A stretch of 64,000 bases of DNA, from positions 51,904 through 115,903 of the forward strand of contig JBJMVQ010000040.1 in the NCBI GenBank assembly GCA_045810625.1. The letters are read 5' to 3'. The DNA is from Sulfurifustis sp. (GTDB taxonomy: Bacteria; Pseudomonadota; Gammaproteobacteria; Acidiferrobacterales; Sulfurifustaceae). The notes below the pieces were generated by a model, which worked only from the letters and a program-made list of their open reading frames with translations, was not told the origin of the DNA and ran no database searches. The translations under genes were made by a program, and so were the position numbers. Below, one piece after another: positions 37,990-44,212 of the stretch (the stretch's first letter is position 1; each line of letters begins with the position of its first letter).

Positions 37990-38063
37990 GCGGACATAGC
38001 TCAATGGCAGAGCGCGACCTTGCCAAGGTCGAGACATGGGATCGATACCCATCGTCCGCTCCA
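37990..38063 (+). tRNA. tRNA-Gly(GCC)
   Basis: Manual cloverleaf fit. Anticodon loop TTGCCAA, T-arm ATGGG-ATCGATA-CCCAT, CCA encoded. Confidence 0.8.
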
Positions 38064-38097
38064 TTTTGCGTGATTTCGAACGACAGCGAGATCATTT

Positions 38098-38184
38098 GGA
38101 GAGATGCGCGAATTGGTAAGCGGCCTGACTGTAACTCAGGAGCAGGCGTAGGCCTTGGAGGTTCGAGTCCTCCTCTCTCCACCA
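38098..38184 (+). tRNA. tRNA-Tyr(GTA), class II
   Basis: Acceptor GGAGAGA/TCTCTCC. Anticodon arm CCTGA-CTGTAAC-TCAGG. Long variable arm. T-arm GGAGG-TTCGAGT-CCTCC. CCA. Confidence 0.85.
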
Positions 38185-38316
38185 GTTTTTCAGCGCGCGC
38201 TGGTTGCTGCGGCGTGGACGGTGACACGCGAGAGTTGATCCCGAGCGGGCCCTCTCAGGAACGTTTTGGCCAAACGAGTTGGTTCAATTCCAACCAGCAA
38301 CGGGCGCGGCGCGAAT

Positions 38317-38392
38317 TAGCGAGTACCTCAACGGGCAGAGGCCACGGCTGTTAACCGTGTGAATGTGGGTTCGAACCCCACCTCGCTAGCCA
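38317..38392 (+). tRNA. tRNA-Asn(GTT)
   Basis: Anticodon arm CACGG-CTGTTAA-CCGTG. T-arm GTGGG-TTCGAAC-CCCAC. CCA. Unusual T1-A72 acceptor pair. Confidence 0.7.
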
Positions 38393-38402
38393 GTTAGTGC
38401 AG

Positions 38403-38479
38403 GCACCGGTAGCTCAACCAGGCAGAGCGCTGGTTTCCAAAATCAGATGTTGGGGGTTCGATTCCCTCCCGGTGTGCCA
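38403..38479 (+). tRNA. tRNA-Trp(CCA)
   Basis: Anticodon arm CTGGT-TTCCAAA-ATCAG. T-loop TTCGATT. G1-U72. CCA. Confidence 0.75.
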
Positions 38480-38486
38480 AATATTC

Positions 38487-38563
38487 GGGGCCATAGCTCA
38501 ACAAGGTAGAGCGCCTGTTTTGCACGCAGGAAGCTGGCGGTTCGACTCCGCCTGGCTCCACCA
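38487..38563 (+). tRNA. tRNA-Ala(TGC)
   Basis: Acceptor GGGGCCA with G3-U70 identity pair. Anticodon loop TTTGCAC. T-arm GGCGG-TTCGACT-CCGCC. CCA. Confidence 0.85.
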
Positions 38564-38571
38564 AATGATTT

Positions 38572-38646
38572 GCGGCTATAGCTGAGGCGGATTAGCGCGA
38601 GCCTGAAGAGCTCGAGAGACACGTTCGAATCGTGTTGGCCGCACCA
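38572..38646 (+). tRNA. tRNA-Phe(GAA)
   Basis: Anticodon arm CGAGC-CTGAAGA-GCTCG. T-arm ACACG-TTCGAAT-CGTGT. CCA. Confidence 0.75.
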
Positions 38647-38784
38647 AGTACCGAATGCAGTACGTAACGAGTTGAGATGGCTACAGCTGTTCAGCGGTTC
38701 CGGTTCAAGCGCCGGTCCTGTGCGCCAACGCTTAGGCAACGATGGCACGGTGTATACAGAGCAGCTGCGAGCGTTTCGACGCCA

Positions 38785-38859
38785 GTGAGATAGCTCAGAT
38801 GGGTAGAGCACCGGTCTCATAAACCGGCTGTCGCGGGTTCGACTCCCGCTCTTACACCA
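38785..38859 (+). tRNA. tRNA-Met/Ile2(CAT)-like
   Basis: Anticodon arm CCGGT-CTCATAA-ACCGG. T-arm GCGGG-TTCGACT-CCCGC. CCA. Acceptor stem only partly paired. Confidence 0.6.
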
Positions 38860-39353
38860 GACTGTAACTCTGGCAATTGGTAAAGGCGAAAGCCGAGGTG
38901 GTTCGACTCCACCACTATCGTAATTGCAGTACCAGGGAGCACTCCGGTGACCGGATCCGAGAAGCGCACGTTGGCTTCGACGATCCAATCACAGCGCGGA
39001 TGTCGTTTCGCACGATCGCGCAACTGTGCGGCCGGCCGGCATGGCGTTTTTGCATCGAAGTCGACGACGAAACGAGGGTGGGCGTTTCGAACTCGATGGA
39101 TGTGCAAATCCGAGCGCCGTTCCAGCATCGCAGTCCCGTGGTTGTCCGCGGCGTCGGCGTGGGGTGTCTCCCGCCATTTTTGTGCCCTCTCCTTTTCAGG
39201 AGCGCGTTGTCCCGAGAGGAATTTCACCATCAGTGAAAAAACGGAGGTTCAAGTGAGGAAAACGTAACCGCGTCGGTGTGGCGACTTGAGGCGACTCAAG
39301 TACCGAGTGAGAAAAGAGCCACGCAACCAAATCGTGACTAGAGGAGAACAACA

Positions 39354-40505
39354 ATGTTTGGCATCAAGCGCGTAGTGATCGCGCAGCACGAGCGTGGTCT
39401 GTACCTGAAGGATCGCAGCATCGTGGATATTCTCGATCCGGGCGTGTACTGGATCGCGGACCCGATGGGTCGAGTAAAGGTTGAGCTGTACGACATTAGC
39501 CAGCCGGAATTCGATCACCCCCGCGCCGATATCCTGATCAAGGATTTGGCGGAGCTCTGCGCGAAGTACTTTCAGGTGATCGAGCTCGGTGAGCGCGAGG
39601 TCGGCTTGGTTTACAAGAACGGCAAGCTGACCACGGTGCTCCAGCCGGCGACCCGTAAGTTGTACTGGCGCGGTCCGGTCGAAGTACGTGTCGAGATCGT
39701 GAAGATCGAGACCGACTACGAAGTACCGCGCGACAAGGTATCACTGGTGGCGCGTGCGCGCCCGGGTGAGCTGTTGAAGGCGGTAAGCGACACGGTCTAC
39801 CCAGCCGAAGTGGCGGATGAGTTCATCGGCATGCTGTTTGTGGACGGTGAGTTCATCAAGACGCTGAAACCGGGTTTGTACGCGTACTGGAAGTTCAACC
39901 GTAGCATCAAGGTTGAACAGGTCGACACCCGTGTGCAGACGATGGAAGTTCAGGGTCAGGAAATCCTGACCAAGGACAAGGTCAGCCTGCGTGTGAACCT
40001 GTCGGGTGCGTACAAGATCACCGATGCAGTGAAGGCACGTAAGAGCCTGGTCGACTTCACCGGCTACCTGTACCGCGAGCTGCAGTTCGCTCTGCGTCAG
40101 GCGGTCGGGACCCGTACGCTGGATGTGTTGCTCAGCAACAAGGGTGAGTTGGATCAGGTGATCTACGAAGACGTGCGCGGCAAGGTCGCCGAGCACGGCA
40201 TCGACGTGAAGAGCGTGGGCGTCAAGGACGTGATCCTGCCGGGCGAGATGAAGAACATCTTGAACCAGGTGGTGGAAGCGGAAAAGGCGGCGCAGGCGAA
40301 CATCATCAAGCGCCGTGAGGAAACCGCCGCGACCCGTTCGCTGCTCAACACCGCGAAGCTGATGGGTGAGAACCCGATCCTCGTGCGCCTGAAGGAGCTG
40401 GAAGTGCTCGAGAAGGTGACCGACAAGATCGAGAAGCTCACCGTGTTCGGCGGTCTCGATGGTGTATTGCAGGACATGGTGAAGATCAACGTGAAGCCGG
40501 AGTAA
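39354..40505 (+). CDS. SPFH/band-7 (slipin/flotillin-like) domain protein
   Basis: 383 aa. SD aggag upstream. SPFH core and a C-terminal coiled-coil/EA-repeat region. Confidence 0.85.
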   Translation: MFGIKRVVIAQHERGLYLKDRSIVDILDPGVYWIADPMGRVKVELYDISQPEFDHPRADILIKDLAELCAKYFQVIELGEREVGLVYKNGKLTTVLQPATRKLYWRGPVEVRVEIVKIETDYEVPRDKVSLVARARPGELLKAVSDTVYPAEVADEFIGMLFVDGEFIKTLKPGLYAYWKFNRSIKVEQVDTRVQTMEVQGQEILTKDKVSLRVNLSGAYKITDAVKARKSLVDFTGYLYRELQFALRQAVGTRTLDVLLSNKGELDQVIYEDVRGKVAEHGIDVKSVGVKDVILPGEMKNILNQVVEAEKAAQANIIKRREETAATRSLLNTAKLMGENPILVRLKELEVLEKVTDKIEKLTVFGGLDGVLQDMVKINVKPE

Positions 40506-43388: not shown

Positions 43389-43473
43389 GCCGACGTGTTG
43401 GAAGGCAGACATGGCTGGCTCAAAACCAGCCGCCCGCGATAGCATGAGAGTTCGAGTCTCTCCGTCGGCACCA
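43389..43473 (+). tRNA. tRNA-Leu(CAA), class II
   Basis: Acceptor GCCGACG/CGTCGGC. Anticodon arm GCTGG-CTCAAAA-CCAGC. Long variable arm. T-arm GAGAG-TTCGAGT-CTCTC. CCA. Confidence 0.8.
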
Positions 43474-43488
43474 ATCCTTAGCGCGAAT

Positions 43489-43566
43489 GGCGGAATCGGC
43501 AGACGCGCTGGTCTCAGAAGCCCGTGCTCGTCAGAGCTTGCAGGTTCAACTCCTGCTTCCGCTACC
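43489..43566 (+). tRNA. tRNA-like gene of uncertain identity (selC-like T-arm and acceptor, anticodon arm not resolvable)
   Basis: Acceptor GGCGGAA/TTCCGCT. T-arm GCAGG-TTCAACT-CCTGC. The internal segment contains TCTCAGA but no clean cloverleaf could be fitted. Confidence 0.3.
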
Positions 43567-43569
43567 CAA

Positions 43570-43656
43570 GCCCAAGTGTTGGAACGGCAGACATGCGGCC
43601 TTGAGGTGGCCGTGCTCTTTGGAGCATTGCGAGTTCAAGTCTCGCCTTGGGTACCA
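43570..43656 (+). tRNA. tRNA-Leu(GAG), class II
   Basis: Anticodon arm CGGCC-TTGAGGT-GGCCG. Variable hairpin TGCTC-TTTG-GAGCA. T-arm GCGAG-TTCAAGT-CTCGC. G1-U72. CCA. Confidence 0.8.
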
Positions 43657-43662
43657 ACTACT

Positions 43663-43784
43663 GTCGCTTAACTCAACGGGAGAGCGCCTCTCTTACAAAG
43701 AGAAGGTCGCGGGCTCGACACCCGCACGGAGGACGCCTGATTCTCAATCAGAAAACACGGGTTTGATTCCCGTTGGAAGCGCCA
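43663..43784 (+). pseudogene. tRNA-like remnants: degenerate tRNA with ACA anticodon loop, then a 3'-half tRNA fragment with CTC loop
   Basis: First unit has T-arm GCGGG-CTCGACA-CCCGC and CTCTC-TTACAAA-GAGAA arm, but no pairing acceptor and no CCA. Second unit (about 43736-43784) has CTGA-TTCTCAA-TCAG, ACGGG-TTTGATT-CCCGT, TGGAAGC-G-CCA, but lacks the 5' half. Confidence 0.35.
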
Positions 43785-43792
43785 TTTGTAGA

Positions 43793-43877
43793 GCGCCAGT
43801 GGCGAAACGGCAAACGCCGGCGGCTTAAACCCGCCTGCCTGCCGGGCTTGTCGGTTCGATTCCGACCTGGCGCACCA
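43793..43877 (+). tRNA. tRNA-Leu(TAA), class II
   Basis: Acceptor GCGCCAG/CTGGCGC. Anticodon arm GGCGG-CTTAAAC-CCGCC. T-arm GTCGG-TTCGATT-CCGAC. CCA. Confidence 0.8.
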
Positions 43878-43881
43878 CGTA

Positions 43882-43925
43882 CCTGGGCGTAGAGGCCGGA
43901 GATTCAAATCCTCTCGTCCAGACCA
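43882..43925 (+). pseudogene. tRNA minihelix-like remnant (acceptor stem + T-loop only)
   Basis: CTGGGCG...TTCAAAT...CGTCCAG-A-CCA. D- and anticodon arms absent. Confidence 0.3.
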
Positions 43926-44048
43926 ACATCCACGTCGGGGCATTCGGATTTCCGGCCCGGCACTCCACGCGTCGGGCGCTCGCCGGCACGGACACACGCT
44001 AAGTCTTTCCGTGAAAACTCCGGCTCACCCTCCCGCCCAGACCATTTT

Positions 44049-44125
44049 TCTCCGTTCGTCTAATTTGGGCAGGACTCGTGACTTTGGATCACGCAATGGT
44101 GGTTCGAATCCATCACGGAGAGCCA
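44049..44125 (+). tRNA. tRNA-Gln(TTG)
   Basis: U1-A72 acceptor TCTCCGT/ACGGAGA. Anticodon arm CGTGA-CTTTGGA-TCACG. T-arm GGTGG-TTCGAAT-CCATC. CCA. Confidence 0.8.
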
Positions 44126-44134
44126 GTTATTCGC

Positions 44135-44212
44135 GCGCCCGTAGCTCAGGCCGGACAGAGCATGCAGCTTCTACCTGCATCGTCGAAGGTTCGAATCCTT
44201 CCGGGCGCACCA
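44135..44212 (+). tRNA. tRNA-Arg(TCT)
   Basis: Acceptor GCGCCCG/CGGGCGC. Anticodon arm TGCAG-CTTCTAC-CTGCA. T-arm GAAGG-TTCGAAT-CCTTC. CCA. Confidence 0.85.

Follow-up and report, generated by a model that had tools for sequence, protein, structure and literature searches.

To count as an L-array, a long cluster of tRNA genes has to hold 20 or more of them, packed at no fewer than 2 per kb (Tran et al. 2015, PMC4758250), in one orientation and at a spacing fit for co-transcription (Santamaria-Gomez et al. 2021, PMC8421152). L-arrays are supernumerary to a complete housekeeping tRNA set. Those of cyanobacteria have been passed on horizontally and occur in linkage with HNH and rtcB genes; that of Anabaena, for which 23 functional tRNAs have been reported, is silent under standard conditions, is induced by translational stress and improves survival (PMC8421152), and TrcR, the repressor of this trn operon, also controls rtcB, one slipin gene and one HNH gene (PMC10272220). 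A different association, predicted by Burroughs and Aravind in 2016 to be an RNA-repair system, comprises, as summarised in bioRxiv 10.1101/312249, the ligase RtcB, a Band-7 protein and a tRNA-like non-coding RNA (ncRNA), the Band-7-associated (b7a) tRNA, encoded just 5' of the Band-7 gene. Here we describe a locus in which the two are found together, namely a tRNA array at positions 37990-44212 of a 64,000-nt stretch of contig JBJMVQ010000040.1 from Sulfurifustis sp. (hereafter the window, meaning this whole stretch), which encloses a slipin gene, a b7a RNA and an rtcB gene, and beyond whose last tRNA lies an HNH gene. An earlier note, made from the letters of the window alone, had described a mixed array of intact, atypical and degenerate tRNAs, a description that our analysis upholds.

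Similar to the trn operon of Anabaena sp. PCC 7120 and the array carried by an integrative and conjugative element of Acidithiobacillus, the array of the window is long, non-periodic and confined to a single strand, holds at least 20 tRNAs with pseudogenes mixed in, and is of horizontal origin. An HNH homing endonuclease likewise adjoins L-arrays, rtcB is linked to them in some genomes, and in Anabaena the rtcB, slipin and HNH genes are co-regulated with the array. The window differs in that rtcB, the slipin gene and the slipin-associated tRNA-like RNA lie inside the array at one locus, and in that its host is a sulfur-oxidising gammaproteobacterium, relatives of the locus being mostly metagenome contigs. 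With the Band-7/b7a/RtcB system, in the form in which the above preprint summarises it, the window shares RtcB, the Band-7 protein and a tRNA-like ncRNA just 5' of the Band-7 gene, whereas in the window and in about 30 other loci a full tRNA array and an HNH gene are attached to this module; set beside the same summary, the module of the window also has a structured 5' element and a 3' hairpin on its b7a RNA, as well as a small SEC-C open reading frame (ORF). The region is an L-array fused with a Band-7/RtcB module, that is, a novel combination of known kinds of element.

The array and the module enclosed in it

ARAGORN called 24 tRNA genes, all on the plus strand and none elsewhere in the 64 kb, and placed the limits of the array exactly where the earlier note had them (37990-44212). 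With 24 genes on one strand and 3.9 tRNA-like genes per kb over 6223 bp, two ORFs included, the array has the size and density of a tRNA array unit or L-array. The gathering score of the Rfam tRNA model (RF00005) was passed by 23 elements, and also by Leu(GAG), at 39.8 bits, when the search space was reduced; among the Rfam families searched for in the window only tRNA reached its threshold, YrlA, tRNA-Sec and others remaining far below. The 20 anticodons that had been read by hand as canonical all agree with the software calls. An N73-CCA end is encoded in 23 of the 24 genes, in keeping with the claim that almost all members carry CCA, and the G-1 ascribed to the His(GTG) gene is indeed encoded, opposite C73.

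Two intact protein genes interrupt the array. The first (39354-40505, plus strand) encodes a slipin of the SPFH (Band-7) type of 383 aa (Pfam Band_7, 7.7e-30), and the second (42086-43276, plus strand) an RtcB RNA ligase of 396 aa (Pfam RtcB, 1.5e-121), whose best match among the GTDB representatives is 66% identical. Its metal-ligand and His-nucleophile motifs DIGCG, GGGNHF, HSGSRG, VHHNY and SHGAGR align with those of P. horikoshii RtcB (PDB 4DWR), and by this motif alignment the active site appears intact, as expected of the ligase of a Band-7 system. In the window 11 tRNA genes lie between the Band-7 gene and rtcB, while the two are directly adjacent in loci L004, L016, L172, L207 and others. 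Downstream of the slipin gene, a small ORF with a SEC-C motif (40592-40838, plus strand), read from the sequence, is broken by a TAG at 40640 and by a +1 frameshift before its ...FKNCCM motif; its DNA is conserved in at least 15 slipin/RtcB loci, and a 60-aa SEC-C gene is called in locus L164. The rtcB gene is followed by a terminator-like hairpin (43280-43303, plus strand) with a 10-bp stem of which 8 pairs are G-C, and then by a T-rich tail. Beyond the last tRNA, the HNH endonuclease gene (44273-44866, plus strand; 197 aa from the first ATG; Pfam HNH_5, 8e-17) has homologs of 45-48% identity that likewise follow the final array tRNA in about 25 related loci; in PADLOC it matches generic HNH domains only.

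Contig JBGPCS010000079.1 (locus L166) carries a syntenic array, in which 23 tRNAs are accompanied by slipin and RtcB genes at corresponding places. Positions 37410-43726 of the window align with it at 82-90% DNA identity, the orthologous tRNAs averaging 89.4% identity against 68-80% for the spacers, and compensatory changes are seen in tRNA stems. The slipin is 94% identical to its L166 counterpart, with a dN/dS of 0.12, and the dN/dS of RtcB is 0.055. Because the tRNAs are better conserved than their spacers and both dN/dS values are low, the cassette, tRNAs and proteins alike, has been under purifying selection. The synonymous divergence from L166 amounts to 0.29 in the slipin gene and to 0.89 in rtcB; this disparity suggests that the slipin and rtcB halves of the cassette have different histories, presumably through recombination or mosaicism.

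The gene at 38784-38858 (plus strand), which software calls Met(CAT) and which the earlier note had taken as the first of its canonical Met genes, belongs instead to the Band-7-associated tRNA-like family. To a covariance model built from 42 distinct copies from other loci, with the window and L166 left out, the segment 38779-38868 is the top match at 87.1 bits, compared with at most 63 bits for true tRNAs. It lies 496 nt upstream of the slipin gene, as is usual for the family, since in most of 69 slipin loci a tRNA-like gene of 71-77 nt precedes slipin by 250-560 nt, and the window thus has the tRNA-like ncRNA that accompanies the Band-7 gene in Band-7 systems. Across the aligned copies 96% of the stem cells are paired, with compensatory changes at 15 of 20 pairs, yet the acceptor stem has just 5-6 bp and no CCA is conserved; the copy in the window has an A1·A72 opposition and no in-register CCA. 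Position 34 is the most variable unpaired position of the core (1.89 bits; G in 18, U in 9, C in 8 and A in 7 of the 42 copies), positions 35-36 favour A and U, and positions 32, 33, 37 and 38 are conserved; the L166 ortholog has AAU as its "anticodon". The lack of an in-register CCA and the free variation of the wobble base across the family led us to reject tRNA-Met for this gene. Directly 5' of it lies a structured element of about 85 nt (38689-38775, plus strand), present upstream of the tRNA-like RNA in 22 loci and showing compensatory changes at 9 of its 22 predicted pairs. On the 3' side, an extension (38859-38913, plus strand) that had been listed among the half-tRNAs contains a T-arm-like hairpin (GGUGG-UUCGACU-CCACC), and its first 54 nt are 83-87% conserved in L171, L173, L175, L178, L181, L182 and L228. 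Since the b7a domain is thus flanked by a conserved element and a conserved hairpin, these alignments suggest an ncRNA of about 230 nt that extends beyond the tRNA mimic.

A further tRNA-like RNA occupies 38203-38301 (plus strand), with a weak match to tRNA-Sec (24 bits). The earlier note had regarded this selC-like fragment as a possible decayed Ser or Cys gene. It folds with a 7-bp acceptor stem, a 5-bp D stem, a 5-bp variable (V) arm and a T arm, and has a long irregular "anticodon" arm without a 7-nt loop and no CCA; GC-rich flanks would be able to lengthen the acceptor helix. In L166 (about 1515-1615) the T stem GUUGG/CCAAC is replaced by CCCGG/CCGGG and the V stem CGUUU/AAACG by CGUAG/CUACG, and because these differences are compensatory the structure is maintained rather than decayed. 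The resemblance of the whole setting to the rsr-yrlBA-rtcBA operon (Ro60, YrlA, RtcB), in which RtcB is likewise paired with a scaffold protein and a tRNA-mimicking ncRNA, does not extend to its parts: the window is without a Ro/TROVE protein, RtcA and RtcR, no TROVE-domain protein being found among the ORFs examined, and the best YrlA (RF02553) score is 26.5 bits compared with a gathering score of 69.

The slipin scan of metagenome contigs, which returned the 69 loci mentioned above, showed that the combination recurs. In about 30 of the metagenome loci, an array of 6-23 tRNAs is followed by HNH, in some cases RtcB, tRNA-like RNA, slipin, SEC-C and RtcB, in this order, and the window and L166 represent a rearranged subtype in which tRNA blocks part the three protein genes. 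Among GTDB genomes, several Gammaproteobacteria (including Ca. Thiodiazotropha, Sedimenticolaceae and Arenicella) have slipin adjoining RtcB together with 1-5 tRNA-like genes, and one metagenome-assembled genome (MAG) has ten tRNAs, RtcB and HNH. In IMG/VR, RtcB lies within large tRNA arrays in more than 20 viral contigs, while no slipin relative was found in the viral contigs of this collection. The plasmid collection contained no similar array and no short tRNA-Leu (see below); only RtcB and slipin genes were matched there, at 65-70% DNA identity. In E. coli, 1425 of 5426 complete genomes have a slipin gene together with a gene for a nucleotidyltransferase domain and a zeta-toxin-family gene, the slipin being 44% identical to that of the window (as measured in a related E. 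coli record). In the slipin island between yjbD and lysC of strain WAT (L237), these two genes stand where RtcB would be; neither a b7a RNA by the covariance model nor an annotated tRNA was found in this island, the only feature upstream of slipin being a T-arm-like hairpin, UGGGUUCGAUUCCCA.

Several features mark the array as an acquisition. The array region has a GC content of 0.55-0.60, compared with 0.67 in the first 30 kb of the window, and it belongs to a low-GC segment of 9.97 kb in the chromosome of this gammaproteobacterium. The segment is bounded by direct repeats of 44 nt on the minus strand (34960-35003 and 44930-44973), each representing the 3' half of a tRNA-Lys(UUU), from the anticodon loop to CCA, with the 5' half in neither copy. 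These att-like repeats agree at 43 of 44 positions (98%), where chance would give 0 such matches; their spacing is 9970 bp, and the DNA enclosed by them carries a DUF3857/transglutaminase gene in addition to the array and the HNH gene. Moreover, homologous arrays sit in unrelated contigs with different flanks. By its lower GC, its att-like tRNA-Lys halves and the differing flanks of its relatives, the array shows the horizontal acquisition and sporadic distribution of L-arrays, and we regard it as horizontally acquired. No integrase was found between the repeats, and the repeat sequence is present in none of the 239 fetched loci; we infer that the repeats are the scar of a site-specific integration into a tRNA-Lys gene, with subsequent loss of the integrase.

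Two atypical families of tRNA

The two most striking noncanonical members of the array, which had been placed among its noncanonical or degenerate genes, proved to belong to conserved and covarying families. The first is a 98-nt tRNA with anticodon UAU (41871-41968, plus strand), described by the earlier note as class-II-shaped, a fold that Infernal supports (61.1 bits with the UAU fold). It has a class-I body with 7/5 acceptor and T helices, a 4-bp D stem and an A73-CCA end, its anticodon arm consists of the stem UCCGU/ACGGA and the loop UUUAUAC, and its variable region of about 28 nt forms a 5-bp stem, GCGGC/GCCGC, closed by the loop CAGAUUA. ARAGORN reports the same gene as Val(tac), a call that we rejected because it implies a 2-bp D stem and a mismatched anticodon stem, while Infernal gives the UAU fold with high posterior. 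In L166 the anticodon UAU and the V stem are unchanged, and two pairs of the T stem differ in a compensatory manner (GCAGG/CCUGC versus GUGGG/CCCAC).

Seven members of this V-arm tRNA(UAU) family could be aligned, and 173 of 173 stem cells are paired. The V stem covaries (GCGGC/GCCGC, CGC/GCG, GCGC/GCGC and CAA/UUG), and its 7-nt loop is conserved as C[A/C]GAU[A/U]A. A 93-nt member annotated tRNA-Ile(tat), with the V loop CAGAUAA, is found in Vibrio phage Thalassa (Demerecviridae). In the window, the loop of the V arm (the arm spanning 41915-41931) matches the anticodon loop of the Ile(GAU) gene of the array (40965-40971), which likewise is without U33; this Ile(GAU) loop reads CCGAUAA or CCGAUUA in the arrays, and the likeness is kept from the window to phage Thalassa. 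One might speculate that the GAU-like V loop is a recognition element for isoleucyl-tRNA synthetase (IleRS), or else a decoy for nucleases. A long variable arm on a tRNA whose anticodon is not that of Leu, Ser or Tyr is also seen in allo-tRNAs, where UAU is among the commonest anticodons of the 8/4 type (Mukai et al. 2017, reviewed in PMC7609411), and in nematode nev-tRNAs, which have a long arm and include an Ile(UAU) type (PMC3333845). Allo-tRNAs, however, have 8/4 or 9/3 acceptor/T helices, and all seven family members have a 7-bp acceptor stem, a 5-bp T stem, a 4-bp D stem and A73; on account of this 7/5 geometry the tRNA(UAU) falls outside the allo-tRNA class. The nev-tRNAs, for their part, are eukaryotic and have Leu-type bodies, in contrast to the tRNA of the window, whose V loop is a conserved sequence resembling the Ile(GAU) anticodon loop.

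The second family is represented by a class-I-shaped tRNA-Leu(UAG) of 78 nt (43311-43388, plus strand; ARAGORN), present as the earlier note had it, with a Leu-type D arm, a variable loop of only 5 nt and an A73-CCA end. Such an architecture is unexpected, as the long arm of tRNA-Leu is kept everywhere but in animal mitochondria (PMC9976931). In 16 family members, 269 of 272 stem cells are paired, with several pair types at nearly every stem position, and two of the three mismatches are those of the window copy (G6·A67 and G51·G63), which are private to it; the L166 copy is fully paired and shows a compensatory change at 3-70. The variable loop has 5 nt in 16 of 16 members, which sets them apart from canonical class II tRNAs, its last base is U in 16 of 16, A73-CCA is present in 16 of 16, the D loop follows AAxxGGCAxA, and the anticodons are UAG, UAA, CAA or CAG. 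Of the elements by which E. coli leucyl-tRNA synthetase (LeuRS) recognises its substrate, A73, G18G19, A15-U48 and the D-loop A20a are all found in the family at sequence level (element list from PMC9976931). Aeromonas phage AhP_Mru1 (Demerecviridae) has two 77-nt genes annotated tRNA-Leu, with the D arm UGACGGAACUGGCAUACGU and a 5-nt variable loop. In Ca. Thiodiazotropha endolucinida (L004, 6818-6894), a short class-I-type Leu(UAG) adjoins a minimal SEC-C/tRNA-like RNA/slipin/RtcB module that has no array, a placement hinting at an association of the short tRNA-Leu with the repair module as such.

T5-like phage clusters such as those of Thalassa and AhP_Mru1 therefore have in common with the window the two atypical tRNA families, and also densely packed tRNAs interspersed with small ORFs; they differ in sitting in lytic genomes and, as noted above, in lacking slipin. 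The window copies are too diverged to match the phage records directly, the link running through other family members. By their pairing and covariation, the V-arm tRNA(UAU) and the short tRNA-Leu are conserved families common to the array loci and T5-like phages and are not products of decay. Our literature searches found no description of either a short tRNA-Leu or a V-arm tRNA-Ile(UAU), although one may still exist, and both architectures are apparently undescribed.

Remaining tRNA genes, scars and flanking sequence

The array is preceded by a conserved non-coding leader (37410-37989, plus strand) with several hairpin-plus-T-run motifs, terminator-like sites at 37761, 37822 and 37935, and about 80% identity to positions 703-1297 of L166; no ORF of at least 60 aa with a Pfam match was found in it. 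The first block of tRNAs (37990-38646), all on the plus strand and all called by ARAGORN, consists of Gly(GCC) at 37990-38063, Tyr(GUA) at 38098-38184, Asn(GUU) at 38317-38392, Trp(CCA) at 38403-38479, Ala(UGC) at 38487-38563 and Phe(GAA) at 38572-38646; its members score 55-66 bits with RF00005, have N73-CCA throughout and follow the order seen in L166.

The second block opens, again on the plus strand and with calls from both ARAGORN and RF00005, with Asp(GUC) at 40856-40935 and Ile(GAU) at 40939-41013, followed beyond a spacer by Pro(UGG) at 41111-41187, Thr(CGU) at 41192-41269 and His(GUG), with its G-1, at 41276-41351. The spacer (41014-41110, plus strand) contains a perfect hairpin (CGUCAGC..GCUGACG, then CUUU) and is 74% (global) to 87% (local) identical to that of L166, the local value being above those of other spacers; this conserved hairpin may be a processing or termination signal within the array. 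U33 is near-universal in tRNAs, and Ile(GAU) and His instead have C33 (at 40966 and 41309, respectively), which is kept in L166 and in distant arrays. Among 318 tRNAs of the family, 31 (about 10%) have C33, including some of the Glu, Gly and Pro genes.

Downstream of the His gene, the window-versus-L166 BLAST comparison leaves as a gap a tRNA-derived insert of 156 nt (41363-41518, plus strand). It begins with a 5' acceptor and D arm (GUGCCCG UA GCUCAGUUGGGUGAG), closes with CGGGCGC-A-CCA, which pairs to its own start, and has an interior of about 120 nt of unrelated hairpins; its fold energy is -79.9 kcal/mol (z = -2.6). The tRNA-Glu(UUC) that follows (41522-41599, plus strand; ARAGORN, Infernal 42.1 bits) has the unpaired first acceptor base attributed to it, an A1·C72 mismatch. 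Since its L166 ortholog has G1-C72 and is otherwise 96% identical, this is a point mutation private to the window. The segment 41609-41697 (plus strand) had been read as a Leu(TAA)-like copy with a 6-nt anticodon loop; its alignment with an intact Ser(CGA) of L166 (5056-5144) identifies it as a tRNA-Ser(CGA) pseudogene, in which substitutions and single-base indels break the anticodon stem, the T stem and the D arm, and orthology rules out a Leu(UAA) origin. The supposed anticodon arm is in fact the D region, Infernal gives only a tRNA-Sec-like match of 20 bits, and the 16-nt identity to the anticodon arm of Leu(UAA) remains as a coincidence or a small conversion patch.

Lys(UUU) at 41703-41777 (RF00005, 68.1 bits; the top-scoring tRNA of the array) and Arg(ACG) at 41786-41861 (59.5 bits), both on the plus strand, each have G1·U72, as do their L166 orthologs. 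The earlier note had seen in this wobble a hint of common origin. It is present in 5 array genes and cannot serve as a mark of shared descent, as it occurs in unrelated isoacceptors and is in part a transitional state, with A-U in the L166 counterpart of Leu(GAG) and G-C in that of Ile(GAU). Between the tRNA(UAU) and rtcB lies a tRNA with anticodon CAU (41984-42058, plus strand; Infernal 63.1 bits). Its C1-G72 is kept in most family arrays, and it shows no initiator hallmarks, having neither a 1-72 mismatch nor three G-C pairs closing the anticodon stem; it is a candidate elongator Met or Ile2 tRNA.

Beyond rtcB and the short tRNA-Leu, all on the plus strand, come three class II Leu genes: Leu(CAA) at 43389-43473 (Infernal 45.3 bits; ARAGORN fold), a degenerate Leu(CAG) at 43479-43568 (Infernal 32.4 bits) and Leu(GAG) at 43570-43656 (ARAGORN fold). 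The degenerate copy, an addition to the genes listed earlier, has a 1-nt deletion in the 3' acceptor strand, a U·C in the anticodon stem and a CCCA end. The next element, taken previously for a remnant with an ACA loop and possibly a decayed Ser, Cys or Val gene, is a decayed tRNA-Val(UAC) (43662-43726, plus strand; partial Infernal match over model positions 7-64, 31.3 bits), its loop CUUACAA reading UAC and not ACA. It has lost the 3' acceptor strand and has the mismatches A10·C25 and C27·A43, while its L166 ortholog (6943-7017) is intact, with a 7-bp acceptor stem and A73-CCA. Fused to it is the 3' two-thirds of a Glu(CUC)-like tRNA (43730-43784, plus strand; partial Infernal match of 20 bits, loop UUCUCAA), comprising the anticodon arm, the T arm and the 3' acceptor-CCA. 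An intact class II Leu(UAA) (43793-43877, plus strand; 52.5 bits by Infernal, also called by ARAGORN) precedes a rearrangement scar read from the sequence (43883-44044, plus strand), with an acceptor/T-type minihelix at 43883-43925 that ends in CGUCCAG-A-CCA and a second, matching 3' end, CGCCCAG-A-CCA, at 44034-44044; the half-tRNAs and minihelix reported before are real features, and the scar has no homolog among the fetched loci. The array ends with Gln(UUG) at 44049-44125 (RF00005, 52.3 bits) and Arg(UCU) at 44135-44212 (61.5 bits), both on the plus strand and also called by ARAGORN. HNH cleavage followed by repair is a plausible cause of the array scars. Overall, the copy of the array in the window is partly eroded, with Ser, Val, Leu(CAG) and the SEC-C ORF broken and Glu and the short Leu impaired.

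The genes checked in the flanks encode, on the left, STAS-domain (RsbR-type), HD-GYP and DUF3857/transglutaminase proteins and, on the right, a GlgX-type debranching enzyme and a glucan phosphorylase. A second low-GC stretch at 30000-34950 (0.57-0.63), with an HD-GYP response regulator and small ORFs without a Pfam match, may be another island.

What the cassette may do

Because the locus sets the array, RtcB, the slipin with its b7a RNA and the HNH gene side by side, we favour, with a probability of about 0.6, the proposal that a horizontally acquired L-type array has merged with a Band-7/b7a-tRNA/RtcB module and an HNH gene into a cassette for tRNA replacement and repair. Should anticodon nucleases, toxins or translational stress, for instance, cut or deplete the tRNAs of the host, a second, sequence-distinct tRNA pool would be available from the array, RtcB would reseal broken tRNAs, the membrane-associated slipin and its tRNA-like RNA would act as cofactor or scaffold, and the HNH enzyme would spread the cassette and cause its rearrangements. 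This proposal is based on the linkage described above and on the published work on the cyanobacterial arrays, and we infer the steps that lead from linkage to mechanism. The link to tRNA damage and anticodon nucleases, raised by the earlier note from the array alone, gains much in plausibility from the intact RtcB, the slipin with its tRNA-like RNA and the HNH gene inside or beside the array. For phage tRNAs, by comparison, it has been put forward that an altered anticodon loop makes them resistant to anticodon nucleases (PMC10264068).

Several observations weigh against replacement and repair. The slipin, RtcB and DUF3857 proteins match no defence family in PADLOC, a simple sigma-70 scan of 37000-45300 returned zero promoters, and no anticodon nuclease or toxin gene was recognised nearby, the small ORFs at 30-34 kb having no Pfam match. 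The role of slipin and the b7a RNA in repair is itself, according to the summary in bioRxiv 10.1101/312249, a prediction without experimental validation. Finally, with several of its members broken, the cassette may be silent or decaying in this host. Carried to its end, this last point makes the whole locus a functionless relic, a decaying remnant of transfer whose tRNAs are neither expressed nor used, and the broken Ser(CGA), Val(UAC), Leu(CAG) and SEC-C ORF, the A1·C72 of Glu, the two mismatches of the short Leu, the deletion and insertion scars, the missing integrase and the empty promoter scan all fit such a view, as does the poor transcription of L-arrays in Acidithiobacillus, and in Anabaena under standard conditions (PMC8421152). 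We nevertheless consider it unlikely, as some 20 of the tRNAs are intact, none of the slipin, RtcB and HNH ORFs is truncated, and the comparison with L166 shows tRNAs better conserved than spacers, compensatory stem changes and low dN/dS in slipin and RtcB. Another reading is a use of the array RNAs as decoys or sponges, which would titrate tRNA-cleaving toxins away from the housekeeping tRNAs and take no part in translation. Such a role was suggested for the operonic tRNAs of Anabaena (PMC8421152), and it would accord with the weak 1-72 pairs or C33 of many family tRNAs and with the b7a RNA, which clearly needs no fixed anticodon. However, the conservation of anticodons, discriminator bases and encoded CCA, together with that of identity elements (G3·U70 in Ala; G-1/C73 in His; A73, G18G19 and A15-U48 in the short Leu), points to aminoacylation and decoding as properties under selection, and the Anabaena array has 23 tRNAs reported as functional; a pure decoy therefore appears improbable to us.

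If the tRNAs do serve translation, they might simply supplement the codon supply, reading codons that are rare in a GC-rich host, either for the host itself or for AT-richer foreign genes. The array does have tRNAs for AUA, UUA, CUA and AGA, which occur at 3.5, 1.1, 1.6 and 0.8 per thousand, respectively, in a rough sample of the long ORFs of the window, and supplementation is the classical explanation for phage tRNAs (PMC10264068). Yet the majority of members serve common codons (Gly GCC, Asp GUC, Arg ACG, Leu GAG), with about one tRNA per amino acid, and the three protein genes of the cassette resemble the host sample in their GC content at third codon positions (0.75) and hardly use the rare codons; L-arrays, moreover, are reported to add isodecoder redundancy and not new anticodons (PMC8421152). 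RtcB, slipin and the tRNA-like RNA would also be left unexplained, so that supplementation, which we hold to be rather doubtful, is a weaker fit than replacement and repair. A phage parentage would account for other features: the array could have been left behind by a T5-like or jumbo phage, or by a prophage, instead of being a bacterial cassette. In its favour, the families of the V-arm tRNA-Ile(UAU) and the short tRNA-Leu both have members in Demerecviridae, the more than 20 IMG/VR contigs have RtcB enclosed in tRNA arrays, and HNH endonucleases are typical of phage tRNA regions (PMC8421152). On the other hand, the segment between the repeats is just 9.97 kb long, the flanking genes checked are of chromosomal types and serve neither phage structure nor phage replication, the viral contigs yielded no slipin relative, and the nearest relatives of RtcB and slipin are in bacterial genomes and MAGs. 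Demerecviridae, furthermore, are virulent phages, and we rate a phage remnant as very unlikely.

The replacement-plus-repair proposal can be taken one step further, tentatively and with little confidence, to a dedicated system for bypassing and repairing tRNA damage in which a b7a bait RNA, nuclease-proof tRNAs and an HNH mobiliser work jointly. The 5' element and the b7a domain, with its wobble base free to vary, would sit on the membrane-bound slipin and sense cleaved tRNAs or present them to RtcB. The nuclease-proof pool would consist of the tRNA-Leu without its variable arm, the tRNA-Ile(UAU) whose V arm copies the anticodon loop of Ile(GAU), and the tRNAs with C33, altered molecules that RNases reading shape or loop sequence might miss, and the HNH enzyme would mobilise the set.

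The role of L-arrays has been tested in one cyanobacterium only, and the Band-7/RtcB system is an untested prediction; here the two are physically fused. At about 7 kb, the fused cassette is compact enough to be moved into a model host, where the question of protection from tRNA-cutting toxins could be put. Two textbook rules, that tRNA-Leu has a long variable arm and that tRNA-Ile is a class I molecule with U33, meet in this locus organised exceptions that are under selection. These exceptions are common to bacteria and T5-like phages, and they raise the questions of which synthetases charge such tRNAs and with what fidelity AUA is read. Were the bypass and repair system to prove true, the presence of the atypical tRNA families in T5-like phages as well would imply that lytic phages and bacterial islands exchange resistant tRNA genes from a pool common to both.

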